Positions 12,519 to 63,727 are shown, counted from the stretch's first letter. The stretch is DNA of 64,000 bases from Candidatus Tiddalikarchaeum anstoanum (GCA_902385255.1 CABMEV010000013.1:14047-78046); one strand, 5' to 3'. The notes: generated by a model from the sequence alone, not told the origin. Numbers and translations are program-made.

Positions 12519-12940
12519 TAAGCGCCACATTCAAGCTAGACACAGATGCTATTAAACAAATAGCTTTTTTCGAATCTATTACTCACGCTAAAGTAAGCGA
12601 TTGTGCAGAAATAGAGGATAAATTACTTTTCATAGTAGGGGAAGGAAATATAGGAAAAGCCATCGGGAAGAACGGCTCAAACGTCAAACTGCTCGAGCAA
12701 AAATTCAACAAGAAAGTTGAGATTATAGAATTCAATAATGACCCTGCAAAATTCGTTGCTAATATATTAAGGCCCGTCGAGGTTAAAAGTTCAGAAATAG
12801 TGACTAACGGTTCATCTAATGTTTTGAATGTAATTATTAACTGTACACGTGCAATGTTCCCAAGCAAAAAGGTTAAAAAAGCCAAGCTTCTTCTTAAAAA
12901 ATACTTTCCACAGATTGGTGAGGTGACAATAACAACATGA
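12515..12940 (+). CDS. nusA: archaeal NusA-like transcription termination/antitermination protein (two KH domains)
   Basis: 141 aa. [25 protein letters not shown] motif. Canonical position between L30e and S12. Confidence 0.85.
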
Positions 12941-21149: not shown

Positions 21150-22691
21150 TTAGTTTTTGCATACTAATAATATTTCAGTGCCTTCTATATCCACACTGAA
21201 GACTTTATTGCAGCCAAAATCGTATCTCCACCACTTATAATTAGTCATGAAATAATCCGAACTGTTGTAGAAACTAATATTCCTGTCAACTGCGTTGAAA
21301 GTGAATCTTGACTTCTCGCTGTCATTGAACAATAACAAATTCATAGACGGATCCATGCCAAGATAAGCTATGCTGATATTCTGCCTGTTATCATTTTCTA
21401 AAACGTACTCAATAGCCTGCTTGTAAGATACACCCCAGTAATCCATTTCGAATGTGTTTCTAATATTAACAAAGTCACGGATAATCTTGTTGAAATAAAC
21501 CATCTCGTAAGGGTGGAATCTTACCATGAATAATAGGGTATATACCAAACTAGCTGCTAATGCTGTCATCGCTAAATACTTCACTAATTTCCCCCTATTA
21601 ATTAAGAATACAAATCCTTTTACTGCAATAATAACAAATGCGGGATAAGTGAAAAATAAGTGCCTCCACGAATCATACAATGGAGACTTAAACAGTATAA
21701 CTAAAAATAACGGCAGGAAAAACCATAAACTTACAGATGCATCCATCCTTCCAAATTTTTTATTTAATAGTAAGAGTATCAGATAAACAACTCCAAAACA
21801 AAATAATGCAGTATAAATGATAGGTGTTGTTATGAATATCCAGACAAGAACGTAATGCCAAGGCATAGTTGCGGGTGTTATTACCTTACCGAGATAAATC
21901 TCGTTGAAGTCATGCCTGAACCTTGAGAACGCATTCAACGCCTCGAATATGTAGAACGGGCTGCTCCATAATGTAGGCCAGAAAAGGATAATTAAGATAG
22001 AAGTCAGAGTAAAGTAGAATACTGGCTTTGACAACTCATGTTTTGTAATAAACAGCTTTTTATTACTTAAATTAAAGCAGTCAGAAAGCAAGAATATTAT
22101 AGTAATTGCAGGTATAATAAGCCCGAGAACGCGTATGTCAACAAGAAGGGCGCTTGTAATGGCGTGAAGACCCAGGTTAAATACTGACTTGTCATCCAAG
22201 AATCGGAACATGGAGTACACTGAGATTATGAAGAATGACAGGAAAACAGAATCCTTGGAATTGTAGAATGCGTCTGCGAATATCCTCGGACTTAGTATTA
22301 ATATTAGTACAGCCAAGAGCGAGATTTTCCAATTTTTGAAGTACTTCCTGCAAAGCAGGTAGAAGAAGTAAGTACTTGTATAAAATGTTAAGAAAATCAC
22401 TAAATGCCTCATTGCATAAATAGACTGGCTGCTCGTTAACCCGAGCAGTTTCTCAATTATCACCAGAAAGACCTCGTAAACAGGCCCGTAATCCTTATTC
22501 TGATACGATAATAATGAATTATCAGCATGAAATACGTAGTTGTAAACAGTTAATCCATAATCCCTCTGCACTGAGTCATCAAAACCCATACCATAATCCC
22601 TAAATACAAATAATCCTACAAAGAGAAATATTATCCAGAACGCCAGAGTTATTACCTTTTCATTGTCCAAGAATTTTAATGCCTTATTCAT
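21150..22691 (-). CDS. GT-C fold membrane glycosyltransferase (second copy, family 39/83-like)
   Basis: 513 aa, polytopic. First-loop FRDYGMGFDDSVQRDYG. C-terminal soluble region contains MDYWG. Last gene of the nrdJ-cobA-GT minus-strand string, 1-nt gap to cobA. Confidence 0.55.
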   Translation of the reverse strand: MNKALKFLDNEKVITLAFWIIFLFVGLFVFRDYGMGFDDSVQRDYGLTVYNYVFHADNSLLSYQNKDYGPVYEVFLVIIEKLLGLTSSQSIYAMRHLVIFLTFYTSTYFFYLLCRKYFKNWKISLLAVLILILSPRIFADAFYNSKDSVFLSFFIISVYSMFRFLDDKSVFNLGLHAITSALLVDIRVLGLIIPAITIIFLLSDCFNLSNKKLFITKHELSKPVFYFTLTSILIILFWPTLWSSPFYIFEALNAFSRFRHDFNEIYLGKVITPATMPWHYVLVWIFITTPIIYTALFCFGVVYLILLLLNKKFGRMDASVSLWFFLPLFLVILFKSPLYDSWRHLFFTYPAFVIIAVKGFVFLINRGKLVKYLAMTALAASLVYTLLFMVRFHPYEMVYFNKIIRDFVNIRNTFEMDYWGVSYKQAIEYVLENDNRQNISIAYLGMDPSMNLLLFNDSEKSRFTFNAVDRNISFYNSSDYFMTNYKWWRYDFGCNKVFSVDIEGTEILLVCKN

Positions 22692-22692
22692 G

Positions 22693-23208
22693 CTAGTATT
22701 CTATTCCTTTCACAGCTTTCACACCCTTATCATAAGGATGTTTCACATCATTCATTACAGTCACCAAGTCAGCCTTGTTTATGAACTCTTCAGGCGCATT
22801 CCTGCCAGTCAGTATTACAAGCATGTCTTTCGGAGCATCATCAATAAGTGACAATACATCCTCTTTTTTTAACAAACCTATGGCAACAGCGAGGTTCACC
22901 TCATCAAGTATTAACACCTTAATCTTCTCCTTTAATATTTTTTTGGCAAAGAGTATGCCTTTTTTTGCAGCAAAGATATCACTTTCATTTGGCTTGTCCA
23001 AATTCACGAACTCTTTTTTCCCAAACTGGTATAATTTAAGATAAGGACTCAGCATCTTCTGAACTTTATACTCGCCTACATCCTTTCTGCCTTTCATGAA
23101 CTGCACGATTACAACTTTATACTTATGACCTGCATTCCTTAAAGCCAAACCTAACGCAGTTAATGTCTTGCCCTCGCCGTCTCCGGTGTAAACATGCACC
23201 CTAACCAT
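22693..23208 (-). CDS. cobA: cob(I)alamin/cob(I)yrinic acid a,c-diamide adenosyltransferase (CobA/CobO/BtuR family)
   Basis: 171 aa. VYTGDGEGKTLTALGLALRNAGHKYKVVIVQFMKG matches the CobA P-loop region. 8-nt overlap with nrdJ. Confidence 0.85.
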   Translation of the reverse strand: MVRVHVYTGDGEGKTLTALGLALRNAGHKYKVVIVQFMKGRKDVGEYKVQKMLSPYLKLYQFGKKEFVNLDKPNESDIFAAKKGILFAKKILKEKIKVLILDEVNLAVAIGLLKKEDVLSLIDDAPKDMLVILTGRNAPEEFINKADLVTVMNDVKHPYDKGVKAVKGIEY

Positions 23209-24661
23209 TTTTGCAAACCTCGCATATCACTTGCTTTTCCCTGCTCTTATCGCGGTACACAGTCAATCCTTTAATACCTAACTCGTAACCAAGAAGCACC
23301 ACTTTCTTAACATCGCTCTTTGAAGCATCATTATTGAAAGATATAGTCTTACTAACTGCATTGTCAACATGTTTTTGGAATACTGCCTGCATCTTGACTT
23401 GTTGTTCGCTCTTCACATCCTTCAAAGTTACAAGATAATCCGAGTTCTCATACTTCTTGCTTAGAACATCCCCTTCATTTATTGAACGATTAAAAGATTC
23501 TGAAAACACAGGGTCTATGCTGCTTGAACAATCAGCTATTATGCTGATACTGCCTGTTGGCGCAATGCTAAGCAGTGTTTTATTATTCTCTGAATACTTC
23601 TTCGCAGTGGACTTGATAAATCCCATTACTTCATCAGCAATCCTCAGCGCAGAAGCGCTGTCATACCTAACCTTGATTTTTATCAGCATATCTGCGAATC
23701 CCATCACTCCAAGACCAACCTTCCTGTTTTTCAGGCATTTTTTCCTGATTTTGGGAAGAGGGTACTTGTTAATGTCAAGGATATTATTCAAGAACTTAAC
23801 ACCCAGCCTAACCAATTCTCCTAATTTTTCATAATTAATTTTCTCGCCAACTATTACTTTGCTTAAATTTATGCTACCAAGAACACACGCCTCATAAGGC
23901 TCGAGCGGGACTTCGCCGCATGGATTTGTTGCAGCAATGCCCTTCCCAAGCCTGTCTAAGAATATTATTCCAGGCTCGCCGTTGGAATGCATGTTTTCAA
24001 TTATGTTATCGAAGACTTTTTCTGCCTGGACTTTTTTAACAACGCGTCTAGTCCTCGGATTTATCAAATCATACTTTGAATCCTTCTTTAAAGCATCCAT
24101 GAATTTGGAAGTTATGCCCACACTGATATTAAAATGAGGCAGTCTGCCCTCCTCTTTTTTAGAGTTAATAAATTCCATGATGTCCGGATGGTCTACTCTT
24201 AACACCGCCATATTAGCACCCCTCCTTCTTCCACCCTGCTTGACCACTTCGGTGCTTTCATTGTATAATTTGATAAAGCTTACAGGACCGCTTGCCACAC
24301 CATTAGTCGTCTTTACCAAATCACCTCTTGGTCTTATTTTTGAGAAATCAAAACCTACACCGCCGCCGCTCTGGTATATAATTGCAGCATTTTTCAGCGT
24401 GTCATAAATGCTGACCAGGCTGTCCTCTATAGGGAGAACGAAACATGCCAGTAATTGCCCAATCTTTGTCCCAGCATTCATCAAGCACGGACTGTTAGGC
24501 AGGAATTCCAGATTAGTCATTATTTTATAAAACTCTTTTTCCAATTCTTTGTCATTCCTGCTTGCTGATTTAGCAACGCGCCTAAACAATCCTTCGAAAC
24601 TTTCACCAGGCATTAAGTATCTTTTTTTAAGCAATAATTTAGCATTTTCAGACAATTTCAT
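23201..24661 (-). CDS. nrdJ: adenosylcobalamin-dependent (class II) ribonucleotide reductase, compact form
   Basis: 486 aa. NPCGEVPLEPYEACVLGSINL active-site motif, FLPNSPCLMNAG, C-terminal CEVC redox pair. No ATP-cone. Confidence 0.88.
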   Translation of the reverse strand: MKLSENAKLLLKKRYLMPGESFEGLFRRVAKSASRNDKELEKEFYKIMTNLEFLPNSPCLMNAGTKIGQLLACFVLPIEDSLVSIYDTLKNAAIIYQSGGGVGFDFSKIRPRGDLVKTTNGVASGPVSFIKLYNESTEVVKQGGRRRGANMAVLRVDHPDIMEFINSKKEEGRLPHFNISVGITSKFMDALKKDSKYDLINPRTRRVVKKVQAEKVFDNIIENMHSNGEPGIIFLDRLGKGIAATNPCGEVPLEPYEACVLGSINLSKVIVGEKINYEKLGELVRLGVKFLNNILDINKYPLPKIRKKCLKNRKVGLGVMGFADMLIKIKVRYDSASALRIADEVMGFIKSTAKKYSENNKTLLSIAPTGSISIIADCSSSIDPVFSESFNRSINEGDVLSKKYENSDYLVTLKDVKSEQQVKMQAVFQKHVDNAVSKTISFNNDASKSDVKKVVLLGYELGIKGLTVYRDKSREKQVICEVCKNG

Positions 24662-27966: not shown

Positions 27967-29238
27967 ATGATTGAATTATTAAAAGAAGTAATTGAACTGC
28001 TTGATTATTCAAAAAAATTGGAGGAGATTAAAAATTATAAGACTGAACTTGTTGAGTATTTAAAACAAAACGGCTGCAACAAGGAAATAATAGCTTACAC
28101 TGAAAAGATAAACACAAAGAATTATTTGGACAGCATAAATGAGCTCAAAAAAGTTGAACTTTTTATAAATTCTACATTCTCAGAAGCTTACGCCAACATA
28201 TTAGCAGATAAAAATAGAACTAAACTATCTGTTTTAAAATCATTATTGCTAACCTATGAAAGCGGAGACTTAGACTCATTGATAGAGCACATATCTAATG
28301 ATAACTCCCTGAATGATTATTCCTGCCCTGAGTGCAAATACACAGGAGAATTGGTTGTCTCAAAAGGAAACAGTATCTGCCCAAGCTGCGGATTATGCGT
28401 TTATGAAAATTCTGAATTAGTCGTACAAGATGCGAGATGTTTTACCCTGGATCAAAGATTAACAAAGTCGAGGTATGGAGGGGGAATACTTGATTTTGGA
28501 AATCAGACACTGATTGATTTTGCTAACCGCGACGCGCAAGGCAAGAAGTTGTCGCCATTGGCGACGAACAACGCGTACAGGCTTCGCAAGTGGCATTCCC
28601 GCACAGGGATGAACTCATCAACTGCGCGCAGCAAGATGAGCCTTGGCTTCTCATTAAGCAAGTACGAGTCTGCGATTCCGAAGAAGATTATTATTGAACT
28701 TGCCAAGAAGATTTGCTACAAGTGCAAGGAGAAGGATATAATAAGAGGAAGGGGTTTTGAGATAATAGCTGCGGCCAGCATCTACTCAGCTGTCAGGGTG
28801 TTAAAATACCCGCTCAGCCTTAAAAAAATAATATCATTGGCGGATAATAGCGGTGTCACGCCAGGAATCATCCAGTCAACAGTGATGATATTAGACCAGG
28901 CAAAAGTGTATGAAGAACTGAAAATAAAATTAGCGCTGCAGGTTATACCTATTGGCGAAATATGCAGTACATTGAACTTAACTGAACATGAAACATTAGT
29001 TGTTGATAAACTTATGACAAAATTAAACACCAAAAATTTAAACTCAGGCAAGGACCCTATGGGATTTCTTGGTGCAGTAATGTACATACTTTTTAGAGGA
29101 ACTGGCACGCCTTTAACGCAGAGAACCATAGCCAGCGTGGTTAGCGTGACGGAAGTAACAATAAGAAACAGATACAAAGAGCTGTGCAAAAAGGACAATA
29201 TTAGAACGCTAATAGAGTCTTACAAATCTTTATTATAA
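27967..29238 (+). CDS. tfb: transcription initiation factor IIB (TFB) with ~115-aa N-terminal extension
   Basis: 423 aa. Zn ribbon CPECKYTGELVVSKGNSICPSCGLCV at about residue 120. Two cyclin-fold repeats. C-terminal HTH LTQRTIASVVSVTEVTIRNRYKEL. Confidence 0.8.
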   Translation: MIELLKEVIELLDYSKKLEEIKNYKTELVEYLKQNGCNKEIIAYTEKINTKNYLDSINELKKVELFINSTFSEAYANILADKNRTKLSVLKSLLLTYESGDLDSLIEHISNDNSLNDYSCPECKYTGELVVSKGNSICPSCGLCVYENSELVVQDARCFTLDQRLTKSRYGGGILDFGNQTLIDFANRDAQGKKLSPLATNNAYRLRKWHSRTGMNSSTARSKMSLGFSLSKYESAIPKKIIIELAKKICYKCKEKDIIRGRGFEIIAAASIYSAVRVLKYPLSLKKIISLADNSGVTPGIIQSTVMILDQAKVYEELKIKLALQVIPIGEICSTLNLTEHETLVVDKLMTKLNTKNLNSGKDPMGFLGAVMYILFRGTGTPLTQRTIASVVSVTEVTIRNRYKELCKKDNIRTLIESYKSLL

Positions 29239-50844: not shown

Positions 50845-51201
50845 TTGGTAGATCAAGATTTCATCAACAACTTGAAAGAGTTAAAGGAAAAAAATCCACT
50901 CGAGTACTTGAAAGTTTTAAACGCTTACAAATTATCAAACTCTGAATTATACAATGAGATAATAAAAGCCATAACATCAGGCAAGAAACCTGCCGAAAAA
51001 GAAGGCCCGGCAAGGACAGAACCCGAGCACAAAGGGTACCCTTTCAATCTTGAACAATCAGAACCAATAATTGAAGAAAAAAAAGAAGACAAAAAGAAGG
51101 ATAAGAAGATTAACATTGAAATAATCACTTTTTTAGCAGTATTCGGACTGGTTGCAGTCCTAATAGGAATTATCATACTATTTTTTATACTACCAAAATA
51201 A
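50845..51201 (+). CDS. hypothetical tail-anchored membrane protein (non-ATG start)
   Basis: 118-aa ORF with no internal Met (TTG start). C-terminal TM IEIITFLAVFGLVAVLIGIIILFFIL. Acidic/basic linker. Confidence 0.4.
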   Translation: MVDQDFINNLKELKEKNPLEYLKVLNAYKLSNSELYNEIIKAITSGKKPAEKEGPARTEPEHKGYPFNLEQSEPIIEEKKEDKKKDKKINIEIITFLAVFGLVAVLIGIIILFFILPK

Positions 51202-52221: not shown

Positions 52222-52238
52222 TTCTTATCTTAAATAAA

Positions 52239-52385
52239 ATGTTAGATTCCTCCCTGATGAAAATACTTGCATGCCCAGACTGCAAAGGCGACTTGAAAGA
52301 GTCCAATTCTAAGCTAACATGCATTAAATGCAAGAGAGTTTACCAGATTAAAAAAGGCATACCAATACTACTACCTAAACAATAA
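52239..52385 (+). CDS. Trm112-family small zinc-ribbon-like protein
   Basis: 48-aa ORF, below the track cutoff: MLDSSLMKILACPDCKGDLKESNSKLTCIKCKRVYQIKKGIPILLPKQ*. Shows the LACP-x-CKG...Y.I..GIP.LL signature. Confidence 0.65.
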   Translation: MLDSSLMKILACPDCKGDLKESNSKLTCIKCKRVYQIKKGIPILLPKQ

Positions 52386-52390
52386 CAACG

Positions 52391-52400
52391 TTTATAAATA
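52391..52400 (+). promoter_or_regulatory. TATA-like box for the two-gene surface module
   Basis: TTTATAAATA lies ~58-67 nt upstream of TTG 52458. Strong SD GGAGGGGG (52440-52447) is ~10 nt before the start. Confidence 0.4.
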
Positions 52401-52457
52401 AGAAAATTTGACCTTAACACCAAGTTTAGCTATGCATTAGGAGGGGGAAGTTTAAGC

Positions 52458-54746
52458 TTGAATAAGATTGGACAAGAATGTTTAGAAGGATTAGTAACAG
52501 GCGGCGCCGCTGTCGGCATTCCCATAATCGGTGCAGGCTTAGCTGATAATTTTGCCAGAAATCTTTCTCCTCATAATTACGTCGCCCAGGCAGAACTCGG
52601 GCTTGTATCACCTGATAAAATTGCATTCACAGGCAGTTATCCTCATAATGCAGTCGTTGAAAACACCTATTATTTTGACACAACAAAAACATTCCAATTA
52701 AATAATATAACGCAAAAATATAATCCCTTAGTTATTAACAATCCTAACATTGATAACAGCGGCGCACTAATCGGCCAGTACAGCAACGGCGCATGGGCTA
52801 CATCTAACGACCCAAACCTTACACTTTCAAACTTAAGCGATAAGAATCTTGGATTCCATTCCCCCGAATGCATACAAGATGTCGTAACACACGGTGAACC
52901 TGTTGCGAACGCATCGTTTGGCGCTCAAGGATTCTGGTCAGGTGCAGGAACATTCGCAGGCATAAACTTATTATTCGACGGAATAAAAAATTATAAGGCA
53001 GGCAATAAAAAAGCAGGAGCAATAGAGATTGGTGCAGGCGCCGGAATAACAGGAATTAGTACGATTCCAACAGCAGTATCATTAGCTGAGCAAAACACGA
53101 TTTACGCATCAAGCGCTTATAACACCACTAAAATATTAGCCGCGAAGAATATGTCGCTGCTTGGCGGCTCATTCATGCAGGGCTTAGGTTCAGGATTCCT
53201 AGGCAGTGCAGTCTTCGATGCCTTAAAATTCTTCTGGGACTGGGGCAAGAAAGGAGAAAAAAACCCAGACCATTTAGTCAAAGCAGGATGCAAAGCTGTA
53301 GCAGGCGCATCATTATTAAATTACGGCAGCAGCCTGGCAAATCTTGGCACTGCAACTTGGTATGCTAACTCTGTCGGACTTTCAGGAACCACTTTACTAA
53401 ATGGTGCAACAATGGTAAACGGAGGATACTTATACTCATCAACTATTTACACGTGCGGATTAACTAACGCTGTTGCTGCAACGACAACTGCACTTGGAGG
53501 ATTAGCACTAGGACTTGGAGTAGCACTTGGCATTTACGCAATTTACAAAATCGCAAAATATTTCTACAAAAAAAGACATGACAACGGACAAGTAAACCAG
53601 CAAGGAAATGGTCAGCAAGGCAACCAGCAATTACAAGGCCCTCCACAAAACCAGCAAGGCAACCAGAACCAGAACCAGCAACTTCAGAACCAGAATAACC
53701 AGAACCAGAACCAGCAACTTCAGAACCAGAATAACCAGAACCAAAACCAGAATCAGAATCAGCAAAACCAGAATCAGCAACTTCAGATTAACATCCCTCC
53801 TGTAAGTTATCACGTTTTTAACAAATTCTTACTTTCAGACATGATAGAGGATTTAGTAACAGAGCGCAGCAATTACAAAGCCAACCTGCACCATTTAAAA
53901 TACCATTTTAATACTGTGAATAACCAGCCATGCTACGAATGGAATGATAATAATATAAATAGAACCTTAACCAAGCAGGACATACAGAACGTATTAGTGA
54001 AAGCACAGAACCAGGCTTTAACACCTGATGAGGAAGCATTAAGAGATGCGTTCTACTTATCATTCAAGATAAATAATTACAACAAGTACAAAAACTTCCT
54101 TAACACAATTTTCAACACTGACATTCACCAGTTACCATTCACATCCGCTGCAGTGAACAACCCAGGACTGGAAAATTACCTTACAGGAAACAACTTTACA
54201 TTATTACTAGGCGAGTTAAGCAACAGAAATAATGCTCAATTACTAACACCATTATTGAACGGAGGAGGCATACAAGCTAACGCGTTATGGGATAATCATA
54301 ATACTGGAGAAGTCGAATCCCAGGAATTAATCAAGTACTTATTACTTAGACAATCATATGAGAGAGCAGTAGCTGAACTCAAAGTAGTACAGGGCGCAGT
54401 AAGGGTTGAAGACATAATGTATTACTTCGTTAAATACAACACTGAGAAAGGCGGACTGTTTGACACATCAAAAACTCCAACGTTTAAAAGAATAGATTAT
54501 GCAAAAGCGCACAATTATAGCCAGAATGCACCAATAAACAACGTAGGTGATGTGACTAGCGGGATTGACAAATTGTTCAACTTAGACTTGCTTGCATCAT
54601 TATTCAATAAGTCAACAGTACAGAATAACGTTCCAAATAATGACTCTTCATACGCTGCCCGCTTAATCGCTAATGTGAGAGCGAACACTAAAATCCACAG
54701 TATAAATGCAAATTCGAAATTTAAGAAGATATATAATGCTATTTGA
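52458..54746 (+). CDS. Gly-zipper-rich polytopic membrane protein with polyN/Q linker and ~320-aa C-terminal domain (hypothetical)
   Basis: 762 aa, TTG start behind GGAGGGGG. Several Gly/Ala-rich hydrophobic segments (GLVTGGAAVGIPIIGAGLA, GAIEIGAGAGITGIS, ALGGLALGLGVALGIYAIY). NQ tract at about residues 377-443. The stop lies 2 nt before the giant-gene ATG. Confidence 0.7.
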   Translation: MNKIGQECLEGLVTGGAAVGIPIIGAGLADNFARNLSPHNYVAQAELGLVSPDKIAFTGSYPHNAVVENTYYFDTTKTFQLNNITQKYNPLVINNPNIDNSGALIGQYSNGAWATSNDPNLTLSNLSDKNLGFHSPECIQDVVTHGEPVANASFGAQGFWSGAGTFAGINLLFDGIKNYKAGNKKAGAIEIGAGAGITGISTIPTAVSLAEQNTIYASSAYNTTKILAAKNMSLLGGSFMQGLGSGFLGSAVFDALKFFWDWGKKGEKNPDHLVKAGCKAVAGASLLNYGSSLANLGTATWYANSVGLSGTTLLNGATMVNGGYLYSSTIYTCGLTNAVAATTTALGGLALGLGVALGIYAIYKIAKYFYKKRHDNGQVNQQGNGQQGNQQLQGPPQNQQGNQNQNQQLQNQNNQNQNQQLQNQNNQNQNQNQNQQNQNQQLQINIPPVSYHVFNKFLLSDMIEDLVTERSNYKANLHHLKYHFNTVNNQPCYEWNDNNINRTLTKQDIQNVLVKAQNQALTPDEEALRDAFYLSFKINNYNKYKNFLNTIFNTDIHQLPFTSAAVNNPGLENYLTGNNFTLLLGELSNRNNAQLLTPLLNGGGIQANALWDNHNTGEVESQELIKYLLLRQSYERAVAELKVVQGAVRVEDIMYYFVKYNTEKGGLFDTSKTPTFKRIDYAKAHNYSQNAPINNVGDVTSGIDKLFNLDLLASLFNKSTVQNNVPNNDSSYAARLIANVRANTKIHSINANSKFKKIYNAI
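53664..53735 (+). repeat. perfect 36-nt tandem duplication inside the polyN/Q-coding tract
   Basis: cagaaccagaaccagcaacttcagaaccagaataac occurs twice back to back (53664-53699, 53700-53735). It is embedded in CAG/AAC/CAA-rich sequence spanning ~53584-53786. Confidence 0.9.
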
Positions 54747-54748
54747 AA

Positions 54749-57700
54749 ATGGTAATTAAAAATGAAGCAAGAAATGTATTATTAATACTTTTAATACTTT
54801 TAGTGCCTGCTGTGACATTCGCTGCAAGAGCATACATCAGCTTCAATGTTAACGGCGTATTAGTGTCAAGCGACGGCTTCCCAATATCAAGCAGCGTCAA
54901 ACTGAACTGTTCATGCAATAATTACCCTTCATCACTTGCAAAATTTGAAACCACCACAACAACAGACCCAGCCAGCGGGGCATACTTAATATCAACAATT
55001 AATACACCTCTTTCATGCCCTTACACAGCATGCACGTTCACATGTACAGTAATCCCAACAAGCCTGTCACCTTATGCCACATCCACTTTCCAAGTAGGGC
55101 CATTCACAGGCACTTACACATCATACTTTAACAGGACAATAGATGTAACATACCAGTCCAATCTTGACTTTGGAGGAACATTCTCATCAGCGGCGGCTAA
55201 GATATCACAATCACCTTTCATATTCACATTCACCCCAAGCATAGCAGTCAACGACTGCAGATTCAGCACAAGCAGCATAGGATATTATTCGATGACTGCA
55301 GGCAGCATGACAAAGAATGGCACTGCTGATTATGTCGGAAACTATTCCAACCCAAACACAGGAGAGTACACAAGCAACTTATTCGTCAGCTGCCAAAATA
55401 GCCTGACGACAAAAACCAACAATAACACTTACACCTTCGACTTCGCACCGCCAAAAATAGTGACAGTATCAAACACGCCAGGGTATTATTCAACAGTTCT
55501 GCAAAACATGAATATCACCACGGACACGTTAAGCAAGTGCAGCCTGACAGCGAATTACAGCGATGCAAACAAGTGCCAGACAAACTACAGCAGTTTTATA
55601 ACATGCCCATTGACATTCACACCTTCCCCAAGCGGCTCGTACGATTTTCCAGTATCATGCATTGATGAAACAGGCAACAAGAATAACAGTGCAGTAATCA
55701 TAAATTACGTAATAGACATAACTCCCCCAAGTACGGCAGTGAGCGGACAAACCGCATTCGAGAAGGGCTCAACAGGGACGCCTTTTAACTGGACGTTAGA
55801 GGACCCTCTTGTAAACTCTGCACACCCGGGAACTTATTATATATACTTGAATAATACACAAATTGATAACAACACGTGGGATGCGAATAATTTCATAATA
55901 AACAGCGGATACATAGACACGTCAACGACTGCATTTTACAACTACACTTTGTACGTAAAAGACTTTATGGCTAACACTAATTCAAGCACAGTATTCGTAT
56001 CAATAGGAGATACTACTCCTCCTTTATTCACCATAAACACACCTATTAACAATCAAGTATACAGTTCAAGTGTACTGCTTAATCTAACATCTGCTTCAGC
56101 AGACGTTAATGAATGCTTCGTTAACGCTACAGGATCAAACACTACAATGAACAGGGTTGGAAGCTCTTTCACCCTGCCTGCAATATTCACTAACGGTTCG
56201 AAATACTTAATGTTCTACTGCAATGATACATCCAATAACTTAAACAGTGCAGGAATACATTTTACAATCGATGCCGTACCGCCGGTTATAATATCACCTG
56301 GCGATAAAACATTCAGCGTAAACTCCACTCAAACAATTATCTTCCAGCTTTATGACTTCGCCCAAGGAGGATGGTATTATTTCACGCTAAATGGAACAAA
56401 TTACGCCTCTGTTAACAACTGGACCAGTACTGCTAATAATGTATCATTAACAATAGACACTAACCGCGGCGTAGGATTATGGAATTATACAATCTTTGCA
56501 AATGACAGCTTTGGTAATACTAACACTTCGGCAGTAATGGTAACAATAATAGATGATGTCAGCCCTGTATTAACAATAAATTCCCCAAGCAATAACCAAT
56601 TATTTATGACTGCCCCAAATTTTAATATAACAACCAATGAAGCTGTTATTGGGTGCAACTTAAGCATTGATAATTTAGAGAACCAGTCAATGGCTGAGTT
56701 ATCAGCGAATAATTTCGGATTAATCACTTCGGTAATCGACGGCAGCCATAACGTAACATTTTACTGCACAGATAATTATAATAATAAAGGATTTAACACT
56801 GCAAATTTCAGCGTTGACTTAAACCCTCCTTACATAATCAGCCATGCATCATACGCGAAGTATTCAATGAACAGCACGAACAATATTAGCTGGGTATTAG
56901 GCGACGCGTACAAAACAGGCTATTATAAAATATTAATAAATGATACTTTATACACTCCGATAACAAGCTGGGTTAACAATTCTTTATTCAATATAACTGT
57001 TGACACTAATAGGGGAATAAGCTACTGGAATTATACAATAGTATATAATGACAGCATTGGAAGAGAGAATACTGATTCAGTATTCCTGGATGTAGTTGAT
57101 GATATCTCCCCAGCAATCACGATAAAATCACCAGGCAACAATGAGATGTTCACGTCAAATCCCAGATTCAACATCACAGTCAGCGAGACAGTAATTGGAT
57201 GCGGCTTAAGCATTGATTATGGAATTAACCAAAGCATGGATGCCTTGTCAGGATTAGATTACGGACTTATCACTACTGCAGCCGACGGCAACCACAACTT
57301 AACCTATTATTGTACAGACAATTACAATAATGTCGGAACTAATTCAACAACATTTAGAACAGACACTTATCCTCCTTACATTATTACAGCGCCTTTAGTT
57401 GACGTTTTCGAATTTAACAGCACAGGAAGCATTAACTGGACAATAGGGGACTCTTATCCAAGCACAGGGTTTTATTACGTACTCGTAAACGGGACAGCTT
57501 ATTATCCAATAACAATCTGGGCTAACAATTCTTTATTCAACATACCTGTTGACACTAATAGGGGTGTAGGATTATGGAATTATTCACTAATATTCAACGA
57601 CTCAGCAGGCCATACAGCAAGCAATAATTACTTGTTAAGCATAGTTGACACTCTTCCTCCAATAGTTGGAGTCGTAATAATGCAGGACCATGGTGCTGGA

Positions 57701-60700
57701 ACATGGATATTATCAAATATTACAAGACTGCAATGCACCAATGACGAAGCGGGAGCGCACTTCAATTTCGCTTACGCATTAGACGACTATGTTTGGACAA
57801 ACATAACAGGGTGCCAGAATGATATTGACGGATTATGCGACTGGACAATACCGAGAGAGACAAAAGATTTCAATATTAGCTGCACCGCCACAGATAATTA
57901 CAGTAATACAGGCGGCTACGCTTATAATAATTACGCAGGGCTTGACATGAGTCCTCCAACAATAAGTTTAATACCTTTTTCATTAATTTACACAGAACCT
58001 TTTACAATCTCGGTTGACGCGAACGATGCATACATAGGCGTTGCAAACGTCACGTACTGGTATACGAATATTACAGGGTCTTACTTAATCGGGACAAACA
58101 ATACTTCACCTTTCAACTATACATGGACTGTACCTTTTGACTTAGAGAACAAGTACATCAACATAAGCGCCAGCGCTTATGACTATGCAGGATGGGGCCC
58201 TGCAACAGATACCCTATCAAGCATCGGCGTTAACATGGTAGAAGAGCCTCCGGTTGCAATATTCTCAATGAATAAAGCATTGGATGGGAATACCACCAGA
58301 CTCCTTGATGCAACAGGAAGCTATGACAATGACTTCGCAGTTGACAACACACAAATATACTATAATTATCAGATAAGCAATGACAACAACACGTACACAA
58401 ACATAACAGGGTGCACAGACATAAACACGACTTGTTTATGGGATACTACACTAACTTACCCAACCTGCATGCAGGGAGATTCTTGTTATGTAAGAAGCGA
58501 AGTTTACGACTATTATTATAAAACAAACAGCAACGTGGAAATGTATTATATAGATAATACTCCTCCGGGAATAACACTAAACCCTTTAAGCAACCATATA
58601 ATGTCAGGCGATAATCAGACAATAATCTGCCAGGCAAACGACACTTACGACTTTGACAACTTATTCAATATGACATTAATCGCTTACTTCGACAACGGCA
58701 CAGGATACGCCATGCATGTGTTAAATACTACATCAAATACTGATACGATCCGTACAGACTGGATGTTAAATGCAGGATGGCCAAACCAACAGGGAATAAT
58801 AATACAATGCAGCGCTACGGACGGCAATAATTTTACAGGAATCTCAAACAGCACGAGTATCGGACTGGAAAGAGTCGGACCTTACTTCTGGAATGACTCG
58901 ATGAACGTTTCGCAGAATTCAGTGCTTGGAATTGGAGGAATAGTAAAATACTCCGACTACGTAAATGATACATTCCCAGGCGTTGACCAAGTATACTTTG
59001 ACACCAGCAACGGATTATTAAAAGCGAATGCTGGAATGACAAGCGGAGAATACTATTACAATGAAATCTGCACAAGCACTAACATAATAATCTGGAATGG
59101 CACATTAGCCAATGACACTATAGGAAATCCTAATATTACAACATTTGCCACACCTCACTCTTGGTATTGTGATACCAGCAGCCCAGAAATAACAAGCTGC
59201 GGAATAAATACATCAAATACATTATACAAGGGCGAAGTTTCAAGGTTAAGCTGCACAGTAACAGACATAGGTTTTAGCACTGTAAATACTGTATTATTCA
59301 CAACTAACAGGGAGTTTAAGGCAAATAATACAGGGAATACTTATTTTGAAGACTTCATCTGCAACGAGTCAAATAGCGGCAATTACACTTGGAGCAGCGT
59401 ATTCGCAAATGATTCATTAAATAACAGCGGACAAATACTCGTGAATAAGTGGGTTAATTGTGACGCTAATCCTCCAGTAATATCCTCACCTATTGCCAGC
59501 CCAGACACCGTAAACCAGTACGAGAGCGTATGCATAACAGTGAACGTAACGGACAATAACCCTAACATGGTCAGGCTGAATATGAGAAGGCCTGATGCGA
59601 CAACATTCTATGTTAACATGAACAAGAGCGGCGTTTTTGGATGCGGAGGAGAATTTTACAATAATACTTACACGTACGGTTATAACTTGACGCTAAACCA
59701 GCAGGGAGTATATTATATAACACAAGTTTACGCTGATGATGAAGGATTACAGTGGAGCACTATTAATCCAAACACTCCAATATTCTCAATGGACAACCAG
59801 CCTCCAATAATTGAAAACGTAACCCTTCTTGGAGGAAAATATTTCACAAAAGGATGGGAGAACAGCACTTTCAGAGCCAGCGTATACGACCAGGGACTAA
59901 GCGGAGTTGATAAAGTATTGTTCGAATTCAGCGGAGTAAACGAGACTGGAATTTACAATACAAGCAGTTATTATGATTACACTTTCACATGCGCAGGAAG
60001 CTGGGAGCAGGAGAATAATTATACACTAACACACGTTATTGCCAATGATACTAACGGCAACAAGGCAGCGATAAGCGAGAACATATCAATAGTCTGCGAC
60101 ACCAAACCTCCATTAATAACAGATACTACTGTTAACTCATTAAACATACTGCAATATGACAGTGTCTGCATAAGCGCGAACGTTACAGATTCATTCATAA
60201 AAGGAGTCTGGGCAAACCTCTACATTAACGGCACATTAACAAGCATTAACCTAACGAGTCCTTCACCTTGCGGTGCCGGGACTTTTGGCGCGTATTATAC
60301 TGCAATAACCCAGAATAATATATTACTCAACTCAACAAGCGCGATAGACTTTTCAGGAAACTATAATGAAAGCTTTGCAAACATCACCGTGCAGGTTGTT
60401 GCATCATTTTATCCTTCAATAATGAACTGCACACTTAATAATTCAGTACTCCACATCGGCGACATTGGAAAACTAAGCTGCGATATCAGGGACAACGAAG
60501 GAGTTGACACTGCATGGTTCTCAAAATATGACAATAAAACGAGCACCACATCCAATATCACAATGAGCACTGAAGGACTCACAACTTACTACTACAATTT
60601 TGCCTGCGACGCGCAGTCTTATAATTATACAATAGGCAGAGTATTCGCAAATGATACAGACACCATAACGCATACTAACAGTACTATTGTCAACTTGAAC

Positions 60701-63685
60701 GTGTACTGTGACATGCAGCCTCCGAAGATTAATAATATTCAATTTAGCAGCAACAAGTCATACCAGTACAGTACTATATGCGTGAATGCCACGATTACAG
60801 ATGATATGCAGTTAGGTGATGTATGGTTAGAATTATACGAGCCTTACATTGGTGCTTATTGGAAACAGATGAGCAAGACTGCCACTTGCGCATTCGGAAA
60901 CAACACTTATGGTGCGGATATAGAATTATACGAGCCTGGATTTTATGAAATATTCAGAATCGGCGCAGTAGACTACTTGAATAATTATAATGAGACTTGG
61001 ATAAACCAGACTGTTGAATCAGTGGATAATTCAATACCTAGTGTTATAATACAAAGCCCTGTCAATGCAACATACGGTTCATCAAATGTGACACTAACAT
61101 ATTATGCTAATAATGAAATCATAACCAACCAATGGTACGTATTGGACGCTAACCCTATTGTTTACTCAGGAAACTCCACCATAATAACAGGTTTAAGCGC
61201 AGGCTCCCACAAGATAACTACGTACATAAACGATACTTATGGAAATGTAGGAAGCAATAGCGTAATGTTTACAATAAATACCACTGTATTCAGGAATGAC
61301 CTGCAGGTAAATAGTTTAGAACTGCCTTACAAACCAATCGTGTCATACCCAGGATATGGGTATTATTTAATAAACTCAAACATCACCAACAAAGGAGATC
61401 GTGATGCAGTAGATGTTAAAATAAAATATTACGACAACGGCGTATTATTTTATAACGACACAATTAACATATTATTCAACGCCACAACTCAATCGGAAGC
61501 TCACTGGCAGGATTTCACAATAGGACTGCATAACATAACTGTAATCGCTGAACCTCAGCAGAACGAGACTAATGTATTGGATAATTCGAAGACAGGAATT
61601 ACAACAGCAGTATACTTAATAGATGATGTTTCAGTTTCAACAGCCACGCCTGACACCGTCGCACCGAACACGTCATTCATAACAAGAGTTTACGAATACA
61701 GCGATGTTGGAGGCTCATTAAGCATAACCAATCACTTAATACCTCATCCGTCATTAATAATTAACGGCGACTCATTTAACACCAGCACAATAAACTGGCA
61801 CGTATTAAACACAGTAACTTACCACATGACCAGCCCAGGAACTCTTGGAACTTATTACGTATCTACAGATTCATGGATTAACGGCTTCCCTGGAAATAAG
61901 ACAACCAACGAGACTGTAGAAGTAATAAATCCTCACTCGCCGCTCTTCTCGATAGACTTGACAATAATCCCTCCAAGTTTCGAACCATGGATAGAGAATA
62001 CAGTAATAGCAGACATATTCAATTATGGTAATACAACAGCCCATAACGTGAACGCTACACTAAACATGCCAGCAGGAATCAGCTTAATAAGCGGAAACGT
62101 CACGCAGCACTTTGGCGACTTAGTTAACGGTTCATCAATACAGGCAATATGGACTGTGCGCGCAGATTATTCAGGAAGCTTCACACTGGGAGTTAACGCT
62201 TCATGCGATGAGGATACAGCTTCAGAGAATCAGTCATTCAGCGATGATGCAATATTACAAGTAGACCACGTTGATTACCCAACAAGCGTAAAAGTCGACG
62301 GCAACGCTACAATAATAGTCTACATAAATAATGCAGGAGGAAACGCGACTAATGTCAATGTACAATTAGTGCCGGCTGTTAATATGACAGTGTCAGGCAA
62401 TCAGACTTTAAAGACAGTCAATATACCGCAAAACAGCGCGAATTACTCAGTAAGTTTCGATGTCAACCTTAAGAACAGCGGAGACAACCAAGCATTCAAA
62501 CTAGTATTAACACATACGCCAACAAGTTATTATGAAGAGTATACAGGCCACATAAATGTGTGGAGGGATACTACACCACCAAGCGGTACGCCGGTAGTCA
62601 CAGGTTATTCAACAGTTAACGGAAAGAACGTACTCCAATGGACTCCTATCAGCGAAGCATATTATTATTATATCTATAAGGGAATTAATGGAGAAACAGA
62701 CTTTAACAAGACAGGCTATTCTGCAATAGTGCCAAGCACTACAACAAGCTGGATTGACAATAATGTTGAACTTAACAAATGGTATTATTACCGTATCACT
62801 GCAGTTGACGAAGTAGGCAATATAGGAAATTTCAGCGAGTACGTAAGAGTCATCCCAGTTGATACGTACCAGATTGACAGGGAACTTGAACAACTGCAGA
62901 GACAACTAGACCAATTCGTTAACAATCAGACAATAACACAGAGAGAGGAAGCAATGATAACTCAGATAGATGCGAACATAAGCAGGTTATACAATGATAT
63001 ACTAATATTATCAAACATTAGCAGATTGTTAACACCTGAACAAGCAGCAGCAATATCCAGTATAAGACATACTCTCATCGACGCCAAGAACCAGGAAGAC
63101 CCGGGTCTTAGAAAGACATACTTACTGCAGGCTGAGTACGAGTTTGCATTATTCAACAGGGGAGGTTACAGCGTAGGATTGCAGGAATTGCATGATAATA
63201 GGAATGCCGGAAACTTATCAATAGACACGACAACTAACTTAGTTACAGCAACAATAAACGGAAGAACAAGCAATAAGTATACAATCATTAGAATTATAAC
63301 TAATCCTACGAATCTTACATTTGCGAATATCACACTGCAATTCCCAATACCTAATGATGCAGTATTCGAAGAGCAAGTTGCCACAAACGGAAGCCAATTA
63401 GTTTATAACATGACTGATTTAGCTCCGGGTGTTTCAACAAGCATAGAATACACTTATTATACATACTCAAACTTTGACAATAATGAACGAATCAGTATAA
63501 CTATGGTTCCAATACTTCCTCCAGCACCTTTAGAACCAGTAACAGGATTCATAAGTTTGGAGAAAATCGAACCTGGAAGCGCAAAATGGTACCTTACAGG
63601 AGTAGTCTGGATTGGAGTCATAATACTCACACTTACATACTTCTTCAAAGGAAAACTCCAAAGTTTAGCAAGCAAGATATTGTAA
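54749..63685 (+). CDS. giant (~2,980 aa) multi-domain, sequon-dense surface protein with N-terminal signal peptide and C-terminal TM anchor
   Basis: Uninterrupted 8.9-kb ORF. Signal-like MVIKNEARNVLLILLILLVPAVTFA. Repeated beta-rich modules, CARDB-like modules, an FN3 module (YYRITAVDEVGNIGNFSEYVRVIPVD) and a coiled coil. C-terminal TM WYLTGVVWIGVIILTLTYFF. An alternative TTG start lies at 54743. Confidence 0.85.
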   Translation: MVIKNEARNVLLILLILLVPAVTFAARAYISFNVNGVLVSSDGFPISSSVKLNCSCNNYPSSLAKFETTTTTDPASGAYLISTINTPLSCPYTACTFTCTVIPTSLSPYATSTFQVGPFTGTYTSYFNRTIDVTYQSNLDFGGTFSSAAAKISQSPFIFTFTPSIAVNDCRFSTSSIGYYSMTAGSMTKNGTADYVGNYSNPNTGEYTSNLFVSCQNSLTTKTNNNTYTFDFAPPKIVTVSNTPGYYSTVLQNMNITTDTLSKCSLTANYSDANKCQTNYSSFITCPLTFTPSPSGSYDFPVSCIDETGNKNNSAVIINYVIDITPPSTAVSGQTAFEKGSTGTPFNWTLEDPLVNSAHPGTYYIYLNNTQIDNNTWDANNFIINSGYIDTSTTAFYNYTLYVKDFMANTNSSTVFVSIGDTTPPLFTINTPINNQVYSSSVLLNLTSASADVNECFVNATGSNTTMNRVGSSFTLPAIFTNGSKYLMFYCNDTSNNLNSAGIHFTIDAVPPVIISPGDKTFSVNSTQTIIFQLYDFAQGGWYYFTLNGTNYASVNNWTSTANNVSLTIDTNRGVGLWNYTIFANDSFGNTNTSAVMVTIIDDVSPVLTINSPSNNQLFMTAPNFNITTNEAVIGCNLSIDNLENQSMAELSANNFGLITSVIDGSHNVTFYCTDNYNNKGFNTANFSVDLNPPYIISHASYAKYSMNSTNNISWVLGDAYKTGYYKILINDTLYTPITSWVNNSLFNITVDTNRGISYWNYTIVYNDSIGRENTDSVFLDVVDDISPAITIKSPGNNEMFTSNPRFNITVSETVIGCGLSIDYGINQSMDALSGLDYGLITTAADGNHNLTYYCTDNYNNVGTNSTTFRTDTYPPYIITAPLVDVFEFNSTGSINWTIGDSYPSTGFYYVLVNGTAYYPITIWANNSLFNIPVDTNRGVGLWNYSLIFNDSAGHTASNNYLLSIVDTLPPIVGVVIMQDHGAGTWILSNITRLQCTNDEAGAHFNFAYALDDYVWTNITGCQNDIDGLCDWTIPRETKDFNISCTATDNYSNTGGYAYNNYAGLDMSPPTISLIPFSLIYTEPFTISVDANDAYIGVANVTYWYTNITGSYLIGTNNTSPFNYTWTVPFDLENKYINISASAYDYAGWGPATDTLSSIGVNMVEEPPVAIFSMNKALDGNTTRLLDATGSYDNDFAVDNTQIYYNYQISNDNNTYTNITGCTDINTTCLWDTTLTYPTCMQGDSCYVRSEVYDYYYKTNSNVEMYYIDNTPPGITLNPLSNHIMSGDNQTIICQANDTYDFDNLFNMTLIAYFDNGTGYAMHVLNTTSNTDTIRTDWMLNAGWPNQQGIIIQCSATDGNNFTGISNSTSIGLERVGPYFWNDSMNVSQNSVLGIGGIVKYSDYVNDTFPGVDQVYFDTSNGLLKANAGMTSGEYYYNEICTSTNIIIWNGTLANDTIGNPNITTFATPHSWYCDTSSPEITSCGINTSNTLYKGEVSRLSCTVTDIGFSTVNTVLFTTNREFKANNTGNTYFEDFICNESNSGNYTWSSVFANDSLNNSGQILVNKWVNCDANPPVISSPIASPDTVNQYESVCITVNVTDNNPNMVRLNMRRPDATTFYVNMNKSGVFGCGGEFYNNTYTYGYNLTLNQQGVYYITQVYADDEGLQWSTINPNTPIFSMDNQPPIIENVTLLGGKYFTKGWENSTFRASVYDQGLSGVDKVLFEFSGVNETGIYNTSSYYDYTFTCAGSWEQENNYTLTHVIANDTNGNKAAISENISIVCDTKPPLITDTTVNSLNILQYDSVCISANVTDSFIKGVWANLYINGTLTSINLTSPSPCGAGTFGAYYTAITQNNILLNSTSAIDFSGNYNESFANITVQVVASFYPSIMNCTLNNSVLHIGDIGKLSCDIRDNEGVDTAWFSKYDNKTSTTSNITMSTEGLTTYYYNFACDAQSYNYTIGRVFANDTDTITHTNSTIVNLNVYCDMQPPKINNIQFSSNKSYQYSTICVNATITDDMQLGDVWLELYEPYIGAYWKQMSKTATCAFGNNTYGADIELYEPGFYEIFRIGAVDYLNNYNETWINQTVESVDNSIPSVIIQSPVNATYGSSNVTLTYYANNEIITNQWYVLDANPIVYSGNSTIITGLSAGSHKITTYINDTYGNVGSNSVMFTINTTVFRNDLQVNSLELPYKPIVSYPGYGYYLINSNITNKGDRDAVDVKIKYYDNGVLFYNDTINILFNATTQSEAHWQDFTIGLHNITVIAEPQQNETNVLDNSKTGITTAVYLIDDVSVSTATPDTVAPNTSFITRVYEYSDVGGSLSITNHLIPHPSLIINGDSFNTSTINWHVLNTVTYHMTSPGTLGTYYVSTDSWINGFPGNKTTNETVEVINPHSPLFSIDLTIIPPSFEPWIENTVIADIFNYGNTTAHNVNATLNMPAGISLISGNVTQHFGDLVNGSSIQAIWTVRADYSGSFTLGVNASCDEDTASENQSFSDDAILQVDHVDYPTSVKVDGNATIIVYINNAGGNATNVNVQLVPAVNMTVSGNQTLKTVNIPQNSANYSVSFDVNLKNSGDNQAFKLVLTHTPTSYYEEYTGHINVWRDTTPPSGTPVVTGYSTVNGKNVLQWTPISEAYYYYIYKGINGETDFNKTGYSAIVPSTTTSWIDNNVELNKWYYYRITAVDEVGNIGNFSEYVRVIPVDTYQIDRELEQLQRQLDQFVNNQTITQREEAMITQIDANISRLYNDILILSNISRLLTPEQAAAISSIRHTLIDAKNQEDPGLRKTYLLQAEYEFALFNRGGYSVGLQELHDNRNAGNLSIDTTTNLVTATINGRTSNKYTIIRIITNPTNLTFANITLQFPIPNDAVFEEQVATNGSQLVYNMTDLAPGVSTSIEYTYYTYSNFDNNERISITMVPILPPAPLEPVTGFISLEKIEPGSAKWYLTGVVWIGVIILTLTYFFKGKLQSLASKIL
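56009..57646 (+). repeat. three tandem ~543-549-nt (181-183 aa) two-domain coding repeats in the giant gene
   Basis: Unit starts at 56009 (DTTPPLFTINTP), 56552 (DDVSPVLTINSP) and 57098 (DDISPAITIKSP); next boundary at 57647 (DTLPPIVG). Conserved strings VDTNRG(V/I)(G/S)(L/Y)WNY and YCTDNYNN. Confidence 0.85.
59170..61030 (+). repeat. three tandem ~610-635-nt two-domain coding repeats (X-Y units) in the giant gene
   Basis: The recurring CD-x-x-PP-x-I boundary occurs at ~59459 (CDANPPVI), ~60094 (CDTKPPLI) and ~60706 (CDMQPPKI). X-type boundaries lie at ~59183, ~59798 and ~60409. Conserved NYT...ANDT and QY.S.C...VTD strings. Confidence 0.75.
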
Positions 63686-63698
63686 AAAAAAAGGAAGT

Positions 63699-63727
63699 AT
63701 TCGTTAATCTTTTAAAGACGAATTTTT
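63699..63727 (+). terminator. weak hairpin plus T-run after the giant gene
   Basis: ATTCGT (63699-63704) / ACGAAT (63718-63723), 13-nt loop, then TTTT. Confidence 0.25.

Follow-up and report, generated by a model that had tools for sequence, protein, structure and literature searches.

Does the protein encoded immediately ahead of a giant surface glycoprotein in the archaeon Candidatus Tiddalikarchaeum anstoanum belong with that glycoprotein and, if so, what kind of protein is it? The two genes lie in a stretch of 64,000 nucleotides (nt) (GCA_902385255.1 CABMEV010000013.1:14047-78046; here called the window, with positions counted from its first nucleotide), where an open reading frame (ORF) of 762 amino acids (aa) is followed at once by the giant gene. 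An initial annotation of the window described the pair as a self-contained two-gene module, in which a glycine-zipper membrane protein translationally coupled to the giant gene would serve as a membrane platform, channel or export partner. Our comparisons with related archaeal loci indicate that this ORF arose by natural fusion of two genes, which stand first and second in a three-gene, clade-specific envelope operon. We are highly confident of this fusion and of the architecture described with it. A role as trans-membrane adaptor, a function that we infer, is put forward tentatively as a possibility short of an even chance, and the explanation as a whole (fusion, architecture and adaptor role together) seems to us about as apt to prove right as wrong. 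The two genes are:

52458..54746, plus strand: fused ORF, 762 aa, TTG start, TGA stop
54749..63685, plus strand: giant surface glycoprotein gene, 2978 aa

Homologues of the 762-aa protein

The TTG is the first start codon downstream of a TGA in the same frame at 52410, and the frame lacks an ATG upstream of residue 232. On the opposite strand, the gene is overlapped by no ORF as long as 80 aa, which, together with the homologue found at E = 7e-23 (below), argues that the ORF is a real gene and not a chance reading frame. For the comparisons that follow, the protein was divided as listed here, with transmembrane (TM) helices numbered S2-S6 and hydrophobicity given on the Kyte-Doolittle (KD) scale:

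52488..52547, plus strand: S1, residues 11-30, a hydrophobic signal-like segment ending GLA/DN, KD 1.68
52548..52925, plus strand: N-domain, residues 31-156, predicted outside, acidic, with five N-X-S/T sequons and the invariant Cys138
52926..53549, plus strand: glycine-zipper core, residues 157-364, with five predicted TM helices S2-S6
53574..53777, plus strand: linker of asparagine and glutamine (polyNQ), residues 373-440, at the fusion joint
53778..54743, plus strand: C-terminal domain (C-domain), residues 441-762, predicted cytoplasmic, with a conserved helical module at about 53940-54620

Neither the whole protein, nor either domain, nor profiles of four homologues matched anything in Pfam, NCBIfam, PHROGs or the PDB sequences. 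A hit to NCBIfam MAP_0585 (E 7e-4, 19.7 bits where the cut-off is 170) falls on the polyNQ linker and was dismissed as compositional, and the C-domain returned only noise from Pfam at E ≤ 5 (DUF7716 at 0.015). Word-indexed searching, of 5.8 billion clusters for the polyNQ-deleted protein and likewise with P0002, the homologue described next, recovered the queries themselves only. Exhaustive phmmer analysis of 1.84 billion representatives with polyNQ removed gave a single homologue, the 670-aa P0002 (E = 7e-23), in an alignment that runs from residue 76 to 632 and spans both domains. P0002 has no polyNQ; its linker is a short K/S/P-rich segment. Within the window there is no paralogue of either domain, and exact-sequence look-up of the window protein gave no match.

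Conserved gene order in related archaea

The window is an archaeal core region, which holds a split RpoB, RpoA'/A'', EF2, EF1a, L3, L4 and the ribosomal-protein cluster, together with SecY, an EMC3/TMCO1-like (EMC3/YidC-like) insertase, L14e, Cbf5 and Trm112. Its closest relatives are two metagenome-assembled genomes labelled 'Nanoarchaeota archaeon' and 'archaeon CG07_land', with 69% identity in SecY and 61-65% in Cbf5; the next-best Cbf5 among the GTDB representatives is only 50% identical. Judged by its genes, the organism is from a sparsely sampled DPANN clade.

P0002 is encoded on a 6.8-kb contig (L045), where its stop codon overlaps the start of a giant-protein homologue by 4 nt (ATGA). 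Two further giant homologues, P0004 and P0005, lie in an order that runs SecY, EMC3-like gene, L34e and, further on, Cbf5, methyltransferase, Trm112, gene 1, gene 2 and the giant gene. Gene 1 and gene 2 are unannotated at the two loci concerned, where they are arranged as follows:

L046: gene 1 of 295 aa and gene 2 of 876 aa with 13 nt between them, then a 54-nt gap to the giant gene
L047: gene 1 of 332 aa and gene 2 of 515 aa with 13 nt between them, then an 11-nt overlap with the giant gene

A further contig, L053, has the same 11-nt overlap at its giant junction as L047. The window ORF occupies the same slot, between Trm112 and the giant homologue and behind a conserved TATA box, and at all loci the gene adjoins the giant surface-protein gene and shares its orientation. 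The initial annotation had made its proposal depend on homologues always neighbouring a giant surface gene, and all those found (in L045, L046, L047 and L053) lie directly upstream of one. Its two-gene module therefore stands as regards conserved linkage but has to be recast as regards gene number, since the relatives carry three genes and the 762-aa ORF corresponds to the first two, fused.

Conserved order might simply be inherited, and the ORF could be an unrelated neighbour, that is, a fast-evolving membrane protein such as a separate surface or host-interaction factor that has nothing but promoter and position in common with the giant gene. The known loci number four or five and come from one narrow clade, and shared ancestry could explain their order. 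Against this stand the identities to the relatives, 25-30% for the fused protein, 33-45% for the giant protein and 61-69% for SecY and Cbf5, which indicate that the fused protein changes rapidly alongside the surface protein, at an equal or higher rate; in spite of that divergence, the loci have kept gene order, orientation, promoter and the overlap of stop and start codons. Distant giant homologues (P0006 and P0009) lie in other contexts without neighbours of the gene 1 or gene 2 type, which also argues against chance proximity and makes the pairing a trait of this clade rather than of giant archaeal surface proteins generally. We regard an unrelated neighbour as very unlikely.

Other searches added nothing to this set of loci. 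Pattern scans of GTDB genomes and JGI metagenomes, for the protein pair and for the giant-protein pair, gave no further locus; the gene-1 pair and a Cbf5 alignment, used as queries, led back to the two known genomes and no others, and a first Cbf5 scan reached distant archaea only, with no target homologue among them. The literature search found no description of these proteins and no mention of the homologues' accession numbers. The protein is previously undescribed and belongs to a family of orphan proteins with four or five DPANN loci so far.

One gene of the syntenic block differs in presence. A class-I methyltransferase gene of ∼196 aa stands between Cbf5 and Trm112 in three loci (L046 5584-6174, L047 2370-2963, L053 1244-1837) and likely has Trm112 as its partner. 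In the window Trm112 comes directly after Cbf5 (52222-52238), so the methyltransferase gene has been lost or moved there.

Fusion of gene 1 and gene 2

A hidden Markov model (HMM) of the two split-type gene-1 proteins (L046_295 and L047_332) recognised the window ORF at E = 1.3e-7 and P0002 at E = 2.2e-10, while the next best among 5,271 decoy ORFs reached 0.68. By BLASTP, P0002 matched L047_332 at 6e-12 and L046_295 matched L047_332 at 1e-15; by tblastn, the window N-domain matched L047 at 7e-10. The N-domain is on these values homologous to the gene-1 proteins.

The gene-2 proteins, which are rich in low-complexity P/Q or E/K stretches, are harder to align. Their N-terminal 150-190 aa are weakly collinear with window residues ∼500-700 (motifs FY, W and YL..R[EQK]). 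Profile-profile comparison by hhalign matched the C-domain to the whole gene-2 alignment at E = 0.0095 and to its first 200 columns at E = 0.0023, with a score of 17.4; scores from 200 column shuffles averaged 3.1 (sd 2.2) and never exceeded 13.9. The two fused proteins, from the window and P0002, align from N- to C-terminus, and the four-sequence alignment of C-domains and gene-2 proteins is collinear. The C-domain is thus probably homologous to the gene-2 proteins.

The same event can be seen within a population. L053 differs from L047, to which it is otherwise 99.9% identical, by a precise in-frame deletion of 72 bp, flanked by two 11-bp direct repeats ATAATGTGAAT (L047 4189-4271 versus L053 3062-3072), which fuses gene 1 and gene 2 into a gene for an 828-aa protein, after which the giant gene follows. 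The 828-aa protein sits in a 90% cluster of L047 proteins in which the fused form comes from one contig and the split form from many, and it appears to be a population variant. Gene 1 and gene 2 have accordingly fused in at least two independent events. Repeated fusion is a well-established kind of evidence that the products act together, and that the membrane does not separate the C-terminus of the gene-1 protein from the gene-2 protein.

At the joint, the linker (46% Q, 32% N and 9% G over residues 373-440) is encoded in part by an in-frame 36-nt tandem repeat of 3.3 copies with 89% match (53661-53777). The repeat points to a recent in-frame expansion, whose length may differ among strains. 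As P0002 lacks polyNQ, this comparison identifies it as a lineage-specific tether at the fusion joint. A tandem repeat between what are two genes in relatives is also where an assembly or sequencing error might join neighbouring genes artificially. Since the repeat unit is a multiple of three, the independent contig L045 encodes the same continuous architecture without polyNQ, and the two fused proteins align end to end, we consider such an artefact hardly credible.

Architecture and membrane topology

The peptides that the initial annotation quoted (GLALGLGVALG at residues 348-358, GAGAGITGIS at 192-201), the polyNQ linker and a motif-less C-terminal region of 322 aa are all where it had placed them, and 390 aa follow the last hydrophobic segment. 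Its reading of the glycine-rich segments as membrane-spanning fared less uniformly. Only two segments of the 762-aa protein are strongly hydrophobic, residues 11-29 (KD 1.68) and 344-362 (KD 1.86). In 21-residue windows, however, the glycine-rich segments have TM-like mean Eisenberg hydrophobicity (0.42-0.86) and a low hydrophobic moment, and they are separated by loops that alternate between basic and acidic or uncharged; in L046_295 all five segments reach KD 1.3-1.9. Net charges across the four aligned N-domain homologues (window ORF, P0002, L046_295 and L047_332) were:

N-domain: acidic, net charge -4 to -10
Loop A: basic, net charge +1 to +6
Loop B: slightly basic, sequon-bearing, net charge +1 to +2
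Loop C: basic, net charge +2 to +3
Loop D: uncharged, net charge 0 to -2
Tail after the last helix: basic, net charge +2 to +6

The window protein follows this pattern, with core loops A and C basic, B sequon-bearing and D uncharged, and with an N-domain (+5/-10) that, as in all four homologues, is net acidic. By the positive-inside rule, and given that the gene-2 proteins of L046 and L047 have no hydrophobic segment and are soluble, the N-domain and loops B and D would lie outside, five helices would cross the membrane and the C-domain would lie inside. All seven sequons of the N-terminal half fall in stretches predicted to be outside; this N-terminal count is not significant in itself (7 vs 4.5 ± 1.9), and sequons in the C-domain are at chance (5 vs 5.1). 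S1 could be a signal peptide or a sixth helix; its counterpart in P0002 ends AVA/NY, and split-type gene-1 proteins are without S1.

Conservation is concentrated on glycine. The four homologues share 25 invariant columns, 12 of them Gly (including GLG at 242-244) and one Cys (C138). Ser219 and Lys230 are also invariant, and there is no invariant His, Asp or Glu. An enzyme based on Ser/Lys or Cys was considered and rejected, as S219 and K230 are 11 residues apart in a short loop and the other residues named are missing. In the C-domain, the motifs AFYxSF, LWDxH, YLLLRxSxE, YYF..N...GLFD and DLLAxLF are conserved with P0002.

Ladders of small-xxx-small residues at 188-196, 238-250 and 348-358 give the core the conserved G/A/S-xxx-G/A/S pattern of TM glycine zippers, lying in hydrophobic helices and exemplified by the invariant GLG. 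Such ladders are typical of tightly packed oligomeric channels. One could therefore imagine, as the initial annotation did, a channel or pore in which zipper helices oligomerise under the giant protein and conduct solutes, lipids or polypeptides, for exchange with a host or export of the giant itself. The conservation of the ladders in moderately hydrophobic helices and the tight linkage with a surface-protein gene, in a member of a symbiotic group, favour it, as does the central channel that runs along the stalk of a colossal Pyrobaculum S-layer protein (bioRxiv 10.64898/2026.08.21.746120). On the other hand, no charged or polar residue is invariant inside the predicted helices, the giant protein has an ordinary Sec-type signal peptide, and no channel, secretion or glycine-zipper family was matched even at E ≤ 5. 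The glycine-zipper families of Pfam, which we take to be Gly-zipper_Omp, Gly-zipper_OmpA, Gly-zipper_YMGG and Rick_17kDa_Anti, gave no match to the whole protein at E ≤ 0.01 or to the four N-domain homologues at E ≤ 5; what the motif serves is packing, and it does not prove a channel. Likewise, domains of TpsB, type I ABC and MFP secretion partners (POTRA/beta-barrel, ABC/MFP) had no match in Pfam or NCBIfam. A channel would also leave the tethered cytoplasmic domain and the rapid drift unexplained, and we think it unlikely.

Transcription and translation of the module

The signals around the two genes are:

52391..52410, plus strand: module promoter, TATA box and conserved downstream element
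52440..52447, plus strand: Shine-Dalgarno (SD)-like GGAGGGGG, 10-13 nt upstream of the TTG, at the long end of the spacing
54744..54751, plus strand: coupling junction TGA-AA-ATG (TGA 54744-54746, two A's, giant ATG at 54749)
63723..63727, plus strand: first oligo-T run past the giant gene, 38 nt after the giant stop

The TATA-like box TTTATAAATA (52391-52400), the SD and the TTG start are positioned as the initial annotation gave them, and all its coordinates are correct. TTTATAA (52391-52397) is invariant at all four aligned loci (window, L045, L046 and L047), and so is A-ATTTG (52403-52410), six bases past it; both elements sit within 60-70 nt downstream of Trm112. Invariance of the two at four related loci argues that the TATA box is more than a chance occurrence. 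From the usual archaeal TATA spacing, transcription would start near 52420.

Equivalent G-rich SD-like motifs precede the homologous genes, namely AAGGGGG in L045, GGTGGGGAG in L046 and AAGGTGG in L047. The ORF's SD had been called the strongest in the window, which cannot be shown: scored against the canonical GGAGGTGATC, the 16S 3' end lying outside the window, it has a contiguous match of 6 nt (AGGAGG), whereas four other window genes, with starts at 12937, 45661, 50041 and 50309, have matches of 7 nt. The 5' leader of the P0002 gene in L045 (108-170) is ∼55 nt longer than that of the window and holds a 20-codon upstream ORF (MKKVNRVSLNAYSKGVLISG), whose TGA overlaps the GTG start of P0002; this could be a regulatory upstream ORF or a sign of a mis-set start.

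At the other end of the ORF, its TGA does lie 2 nt ahead of the giant ATG, as reported, and this ATG has no SD upstream. No oligo-T (T5) run occurs in 52222-52457 or at the junction, and there is no conserved internal promoter between the two genes. A candidate internal promoter, TATATAAT (54729-54736), was rejected, being ∼13-20 nt from the ATG and not conserved in L045. With the module promoter in front, no oligo-T run or internal promoter between the genes and no SD at the giant ATG, the two genes would form one transcription unit with coupled translation: the ORF and the giant gene are predicted to be co-transcribed from the module promoter, and translation of the giant gene probably starts by termination-reinitiation. 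The co-transcription and coupled translation originally proposed are consistent with these features. By the usual archaeal oligo-T terminators, the unit likely ends at 63723..63727.

The giant surface protein

The giant protein has a Sec-type signal peptide, putative Ig-like repeats, a coiled coil, a C-terminal TM helix and a short basic tail (KGK...K); the only family match above threshold is one to Big_7. It carries 145 N-X-S/T sequons, compared with 69 ± 7 in shuffles. Among its homologues, P0004 (3180 aa) is 41% identical over 90% of the query and P0005 (2576 aa) 33% identical, and the L045 protein, at least 1553 aa before it runs off the contig, shares 45% identity with the first half of the giant protein in the window. 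The terminal features are the same in the giant's relatives.

Genes for glycosyltransferases of the PMT_2 family (dolichyl-phosphate-mannose type) occur in the window at 19032-20495 (plus strand) and 21150-22691 (minus strand), and a PMT-like gene lies directly downstream of the giant gene in L047 (13524-14585); they may be connected with the heavy glycosylation of the giant protein.

A protein this rich in sequons (∼145), apparently translated in coupling with the gene before it, might need help in its making. The 762-aa protein could accordingly be a biogenesis factor, acting sub-stoichiometrically as a chaperone, insertase helper or glycosylation scaffold, with its cytoplasmic domain engaging the nascent chain or ribosome. 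The PMT-like gene after the giant in L047, the two PMT_2 genes in the window and the nearness of SecY and the EMC3/YidC-like gene can be read in the same direction. Proximity to SecY, however, merely marks the end of the universal ribosomal-protein cluster; there is no similarity to known insertases, oligosaccharyltransferases or chaperones and no invariant residue of a catalytic type, and fast divergence is atypical of machinery. A biogenesis factor is in our judgement improbable.

A possible trans-membrane adaptor

We suggest that the module is read from its own promoter in the order gene 1, gene 2, giant glycoprotein, in the slot that follows Cbf5, the methyltransferase where present, and Trm112. 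The gene-1 part (residues 1-372) would be a multi-pass protein with a probably glycosylated outside N-domain, five glycine-zipper helices and a basic cytoplasmic tail, and the gene-2 part (residues 441-762) a soluble module of helices in the cytoplasm, the two halves being joined by the disordered polyNQ tether. The glycine-zipper bundle might pack, probably as an oligomer, beside the giant protein's TM anchors and the base of its stalk, while the outside domain, which carries the invariant Cys, would touch the stalk. The tethered module could then hold a cytoplasmic partner, making the whole an assembly or anchoring platform across the membrane. A structural and stoichiometric rather than enzymatic function is suggested by the conserved glycines, the fast evolution, the position as first cistron behind a promoter and SD, and the tethered module.

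Several observations weigh against this explanation. The giant protein has its own TM anchor and no obvious need of an adaptor. In the window protein, hydrophobicity is no more than moderate in S2-S5 (KD 0.6-1.3). Split-type gene-1 proteins are without an N-terminal export signal, so that an outside N-domain would there require N-tail translocation. HMMER profiles link the C-domain and the gene-2 proteins in neither direction, and for this reason the C-domain half of the fusion argument rests on the profile-profile score, on gene position and on the L053 event. AlphaFold2, run with two-sequence alignments, gave a pLDDT (predicted local distance difference test) of only 31.9 when run on the full protein and of 35.1 on the C-domain; the low-confidence helices that it placed at 157-180, 184-201, 221-265, 270-305 and 329-377 agree with the topology model and carry little weight. 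Finally, the comparison draws on four or five loci, with no module-free close relative as a control.

The nearest functional analogue of the adaptor would be an accessory membrane subunit of the SlaB kind, encoded in a surface-layer operon. In the SlaA/SlaB system of the Sulfolobales too, a membrane partner is encoded beside a large glycosylated surface-layer protein, with which it is presumably co-assembled. SlaB has a signal peptide, N-terminal beta-sandwich or Ig-like domains, a long C-terminal coiled coil and one TM helix, and no cytoplasmic domain (PMC10903991). The 762-aa protein does not have this architecture: it combines five or six glycine-rich TM segments with a large cytoplasmic domain, its gene lies upstream of the big gene, the giant partner has its own TM anchor, and there is no sequence similarity.

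The giant protein itself appears to share the general build of PySLP, a colossal Ig-domain S-layer protein of Pyrobaculum (Thermoproteota) with a C-terminal TM helix and basic tail (bioRxiv 10.64898/2026.08.21.746120). The surroundings of the PySLP genes are conserved too, as a putative operon with a gene for a membrane-associated protein, and their neighbours encode an Ig-domain protein, AMMECR1, a thioredoxin-like protein, adenylate cyclase and DNA ligase (bioRxiv 10.64898/2026.08.21.746120). This likeness is drawn from layout, and S-layer formation by the present protein is putative; phylum and neighbour genes differ, and nothing like the fused protein is described for PySLP. A further likeness, of architecture only, is to ZipA. 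ZipA has a membrane anchor, a P/Q-rich disordered linker and a cytoplasmic globular domain; the fused protein likewise joins a membrane part to a C-terminal cytoplasmic domain through a long low-complexity linker. Its anchor, unlike that of ZipA, is multi-pass with an outside domain, and it has no match to the ZipA C-terminal domain or to any Pfam family.

A bolder version of the platform would make it a DPANN trans-envelope base, in which an oligomeric glycine-zipper pore under the stalk of the giant protein is closed or served by a cytoplasmic gate or dock and takes part in uptake from, or attachment to, a host. We hold this to be quite unlikely; if true, it would offer the first genetic handle on how the interior of an ultra-small archaeon is connected with its surface.

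Other genes of the window

Elsewhere in the window, several ORFs are conserved in position and without a Pfam match: one of 118 aa just before Cbf5 (50845-51201), with a weak counterpart in L047, and two of 337 and 314 aa before the L3 gene (34048-36084). A TFB-like ORF of 423 aa (27967-29238) has two stretches in all that match the TFIIB repeat, the reported best one close to the C-terminus at residues 329-408, and a long N-terminal part without other family match. On the minus strand (22693-24661), a ribonucleotide reductase large subunit (486 aa) is immediately followed by a corrinoid adenosyltransferase of the BtuR/CobO type, a pair that fits a B12-dependent reductase with its cofactor-activating enzyme.

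Significance for DPANN envelopes

DPANN archaea live by surface contact, and to our knowledge almost none of their envelope components has been assigned to genes. The present locus is a conserved operon with its own promoter, which pairs a colossal glycoprotein with two orphan proteins. The repeated fusion of these two, caught in one instance within a population, is Rosetta-stone evidence for joint action of a multi-pass membrane protein and a cytoplasmic protein, and it makes the module a concrete candidate for a link between surface layer and cytoplasm. Should neither the adaptor nor the pore prove true, the locus would still be a clean case of lineage-specific, fast-evolving envelope genes with gene fusion. 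If either is true, it would help to explain how a giant surface protein is organised on cells that have no other wall.

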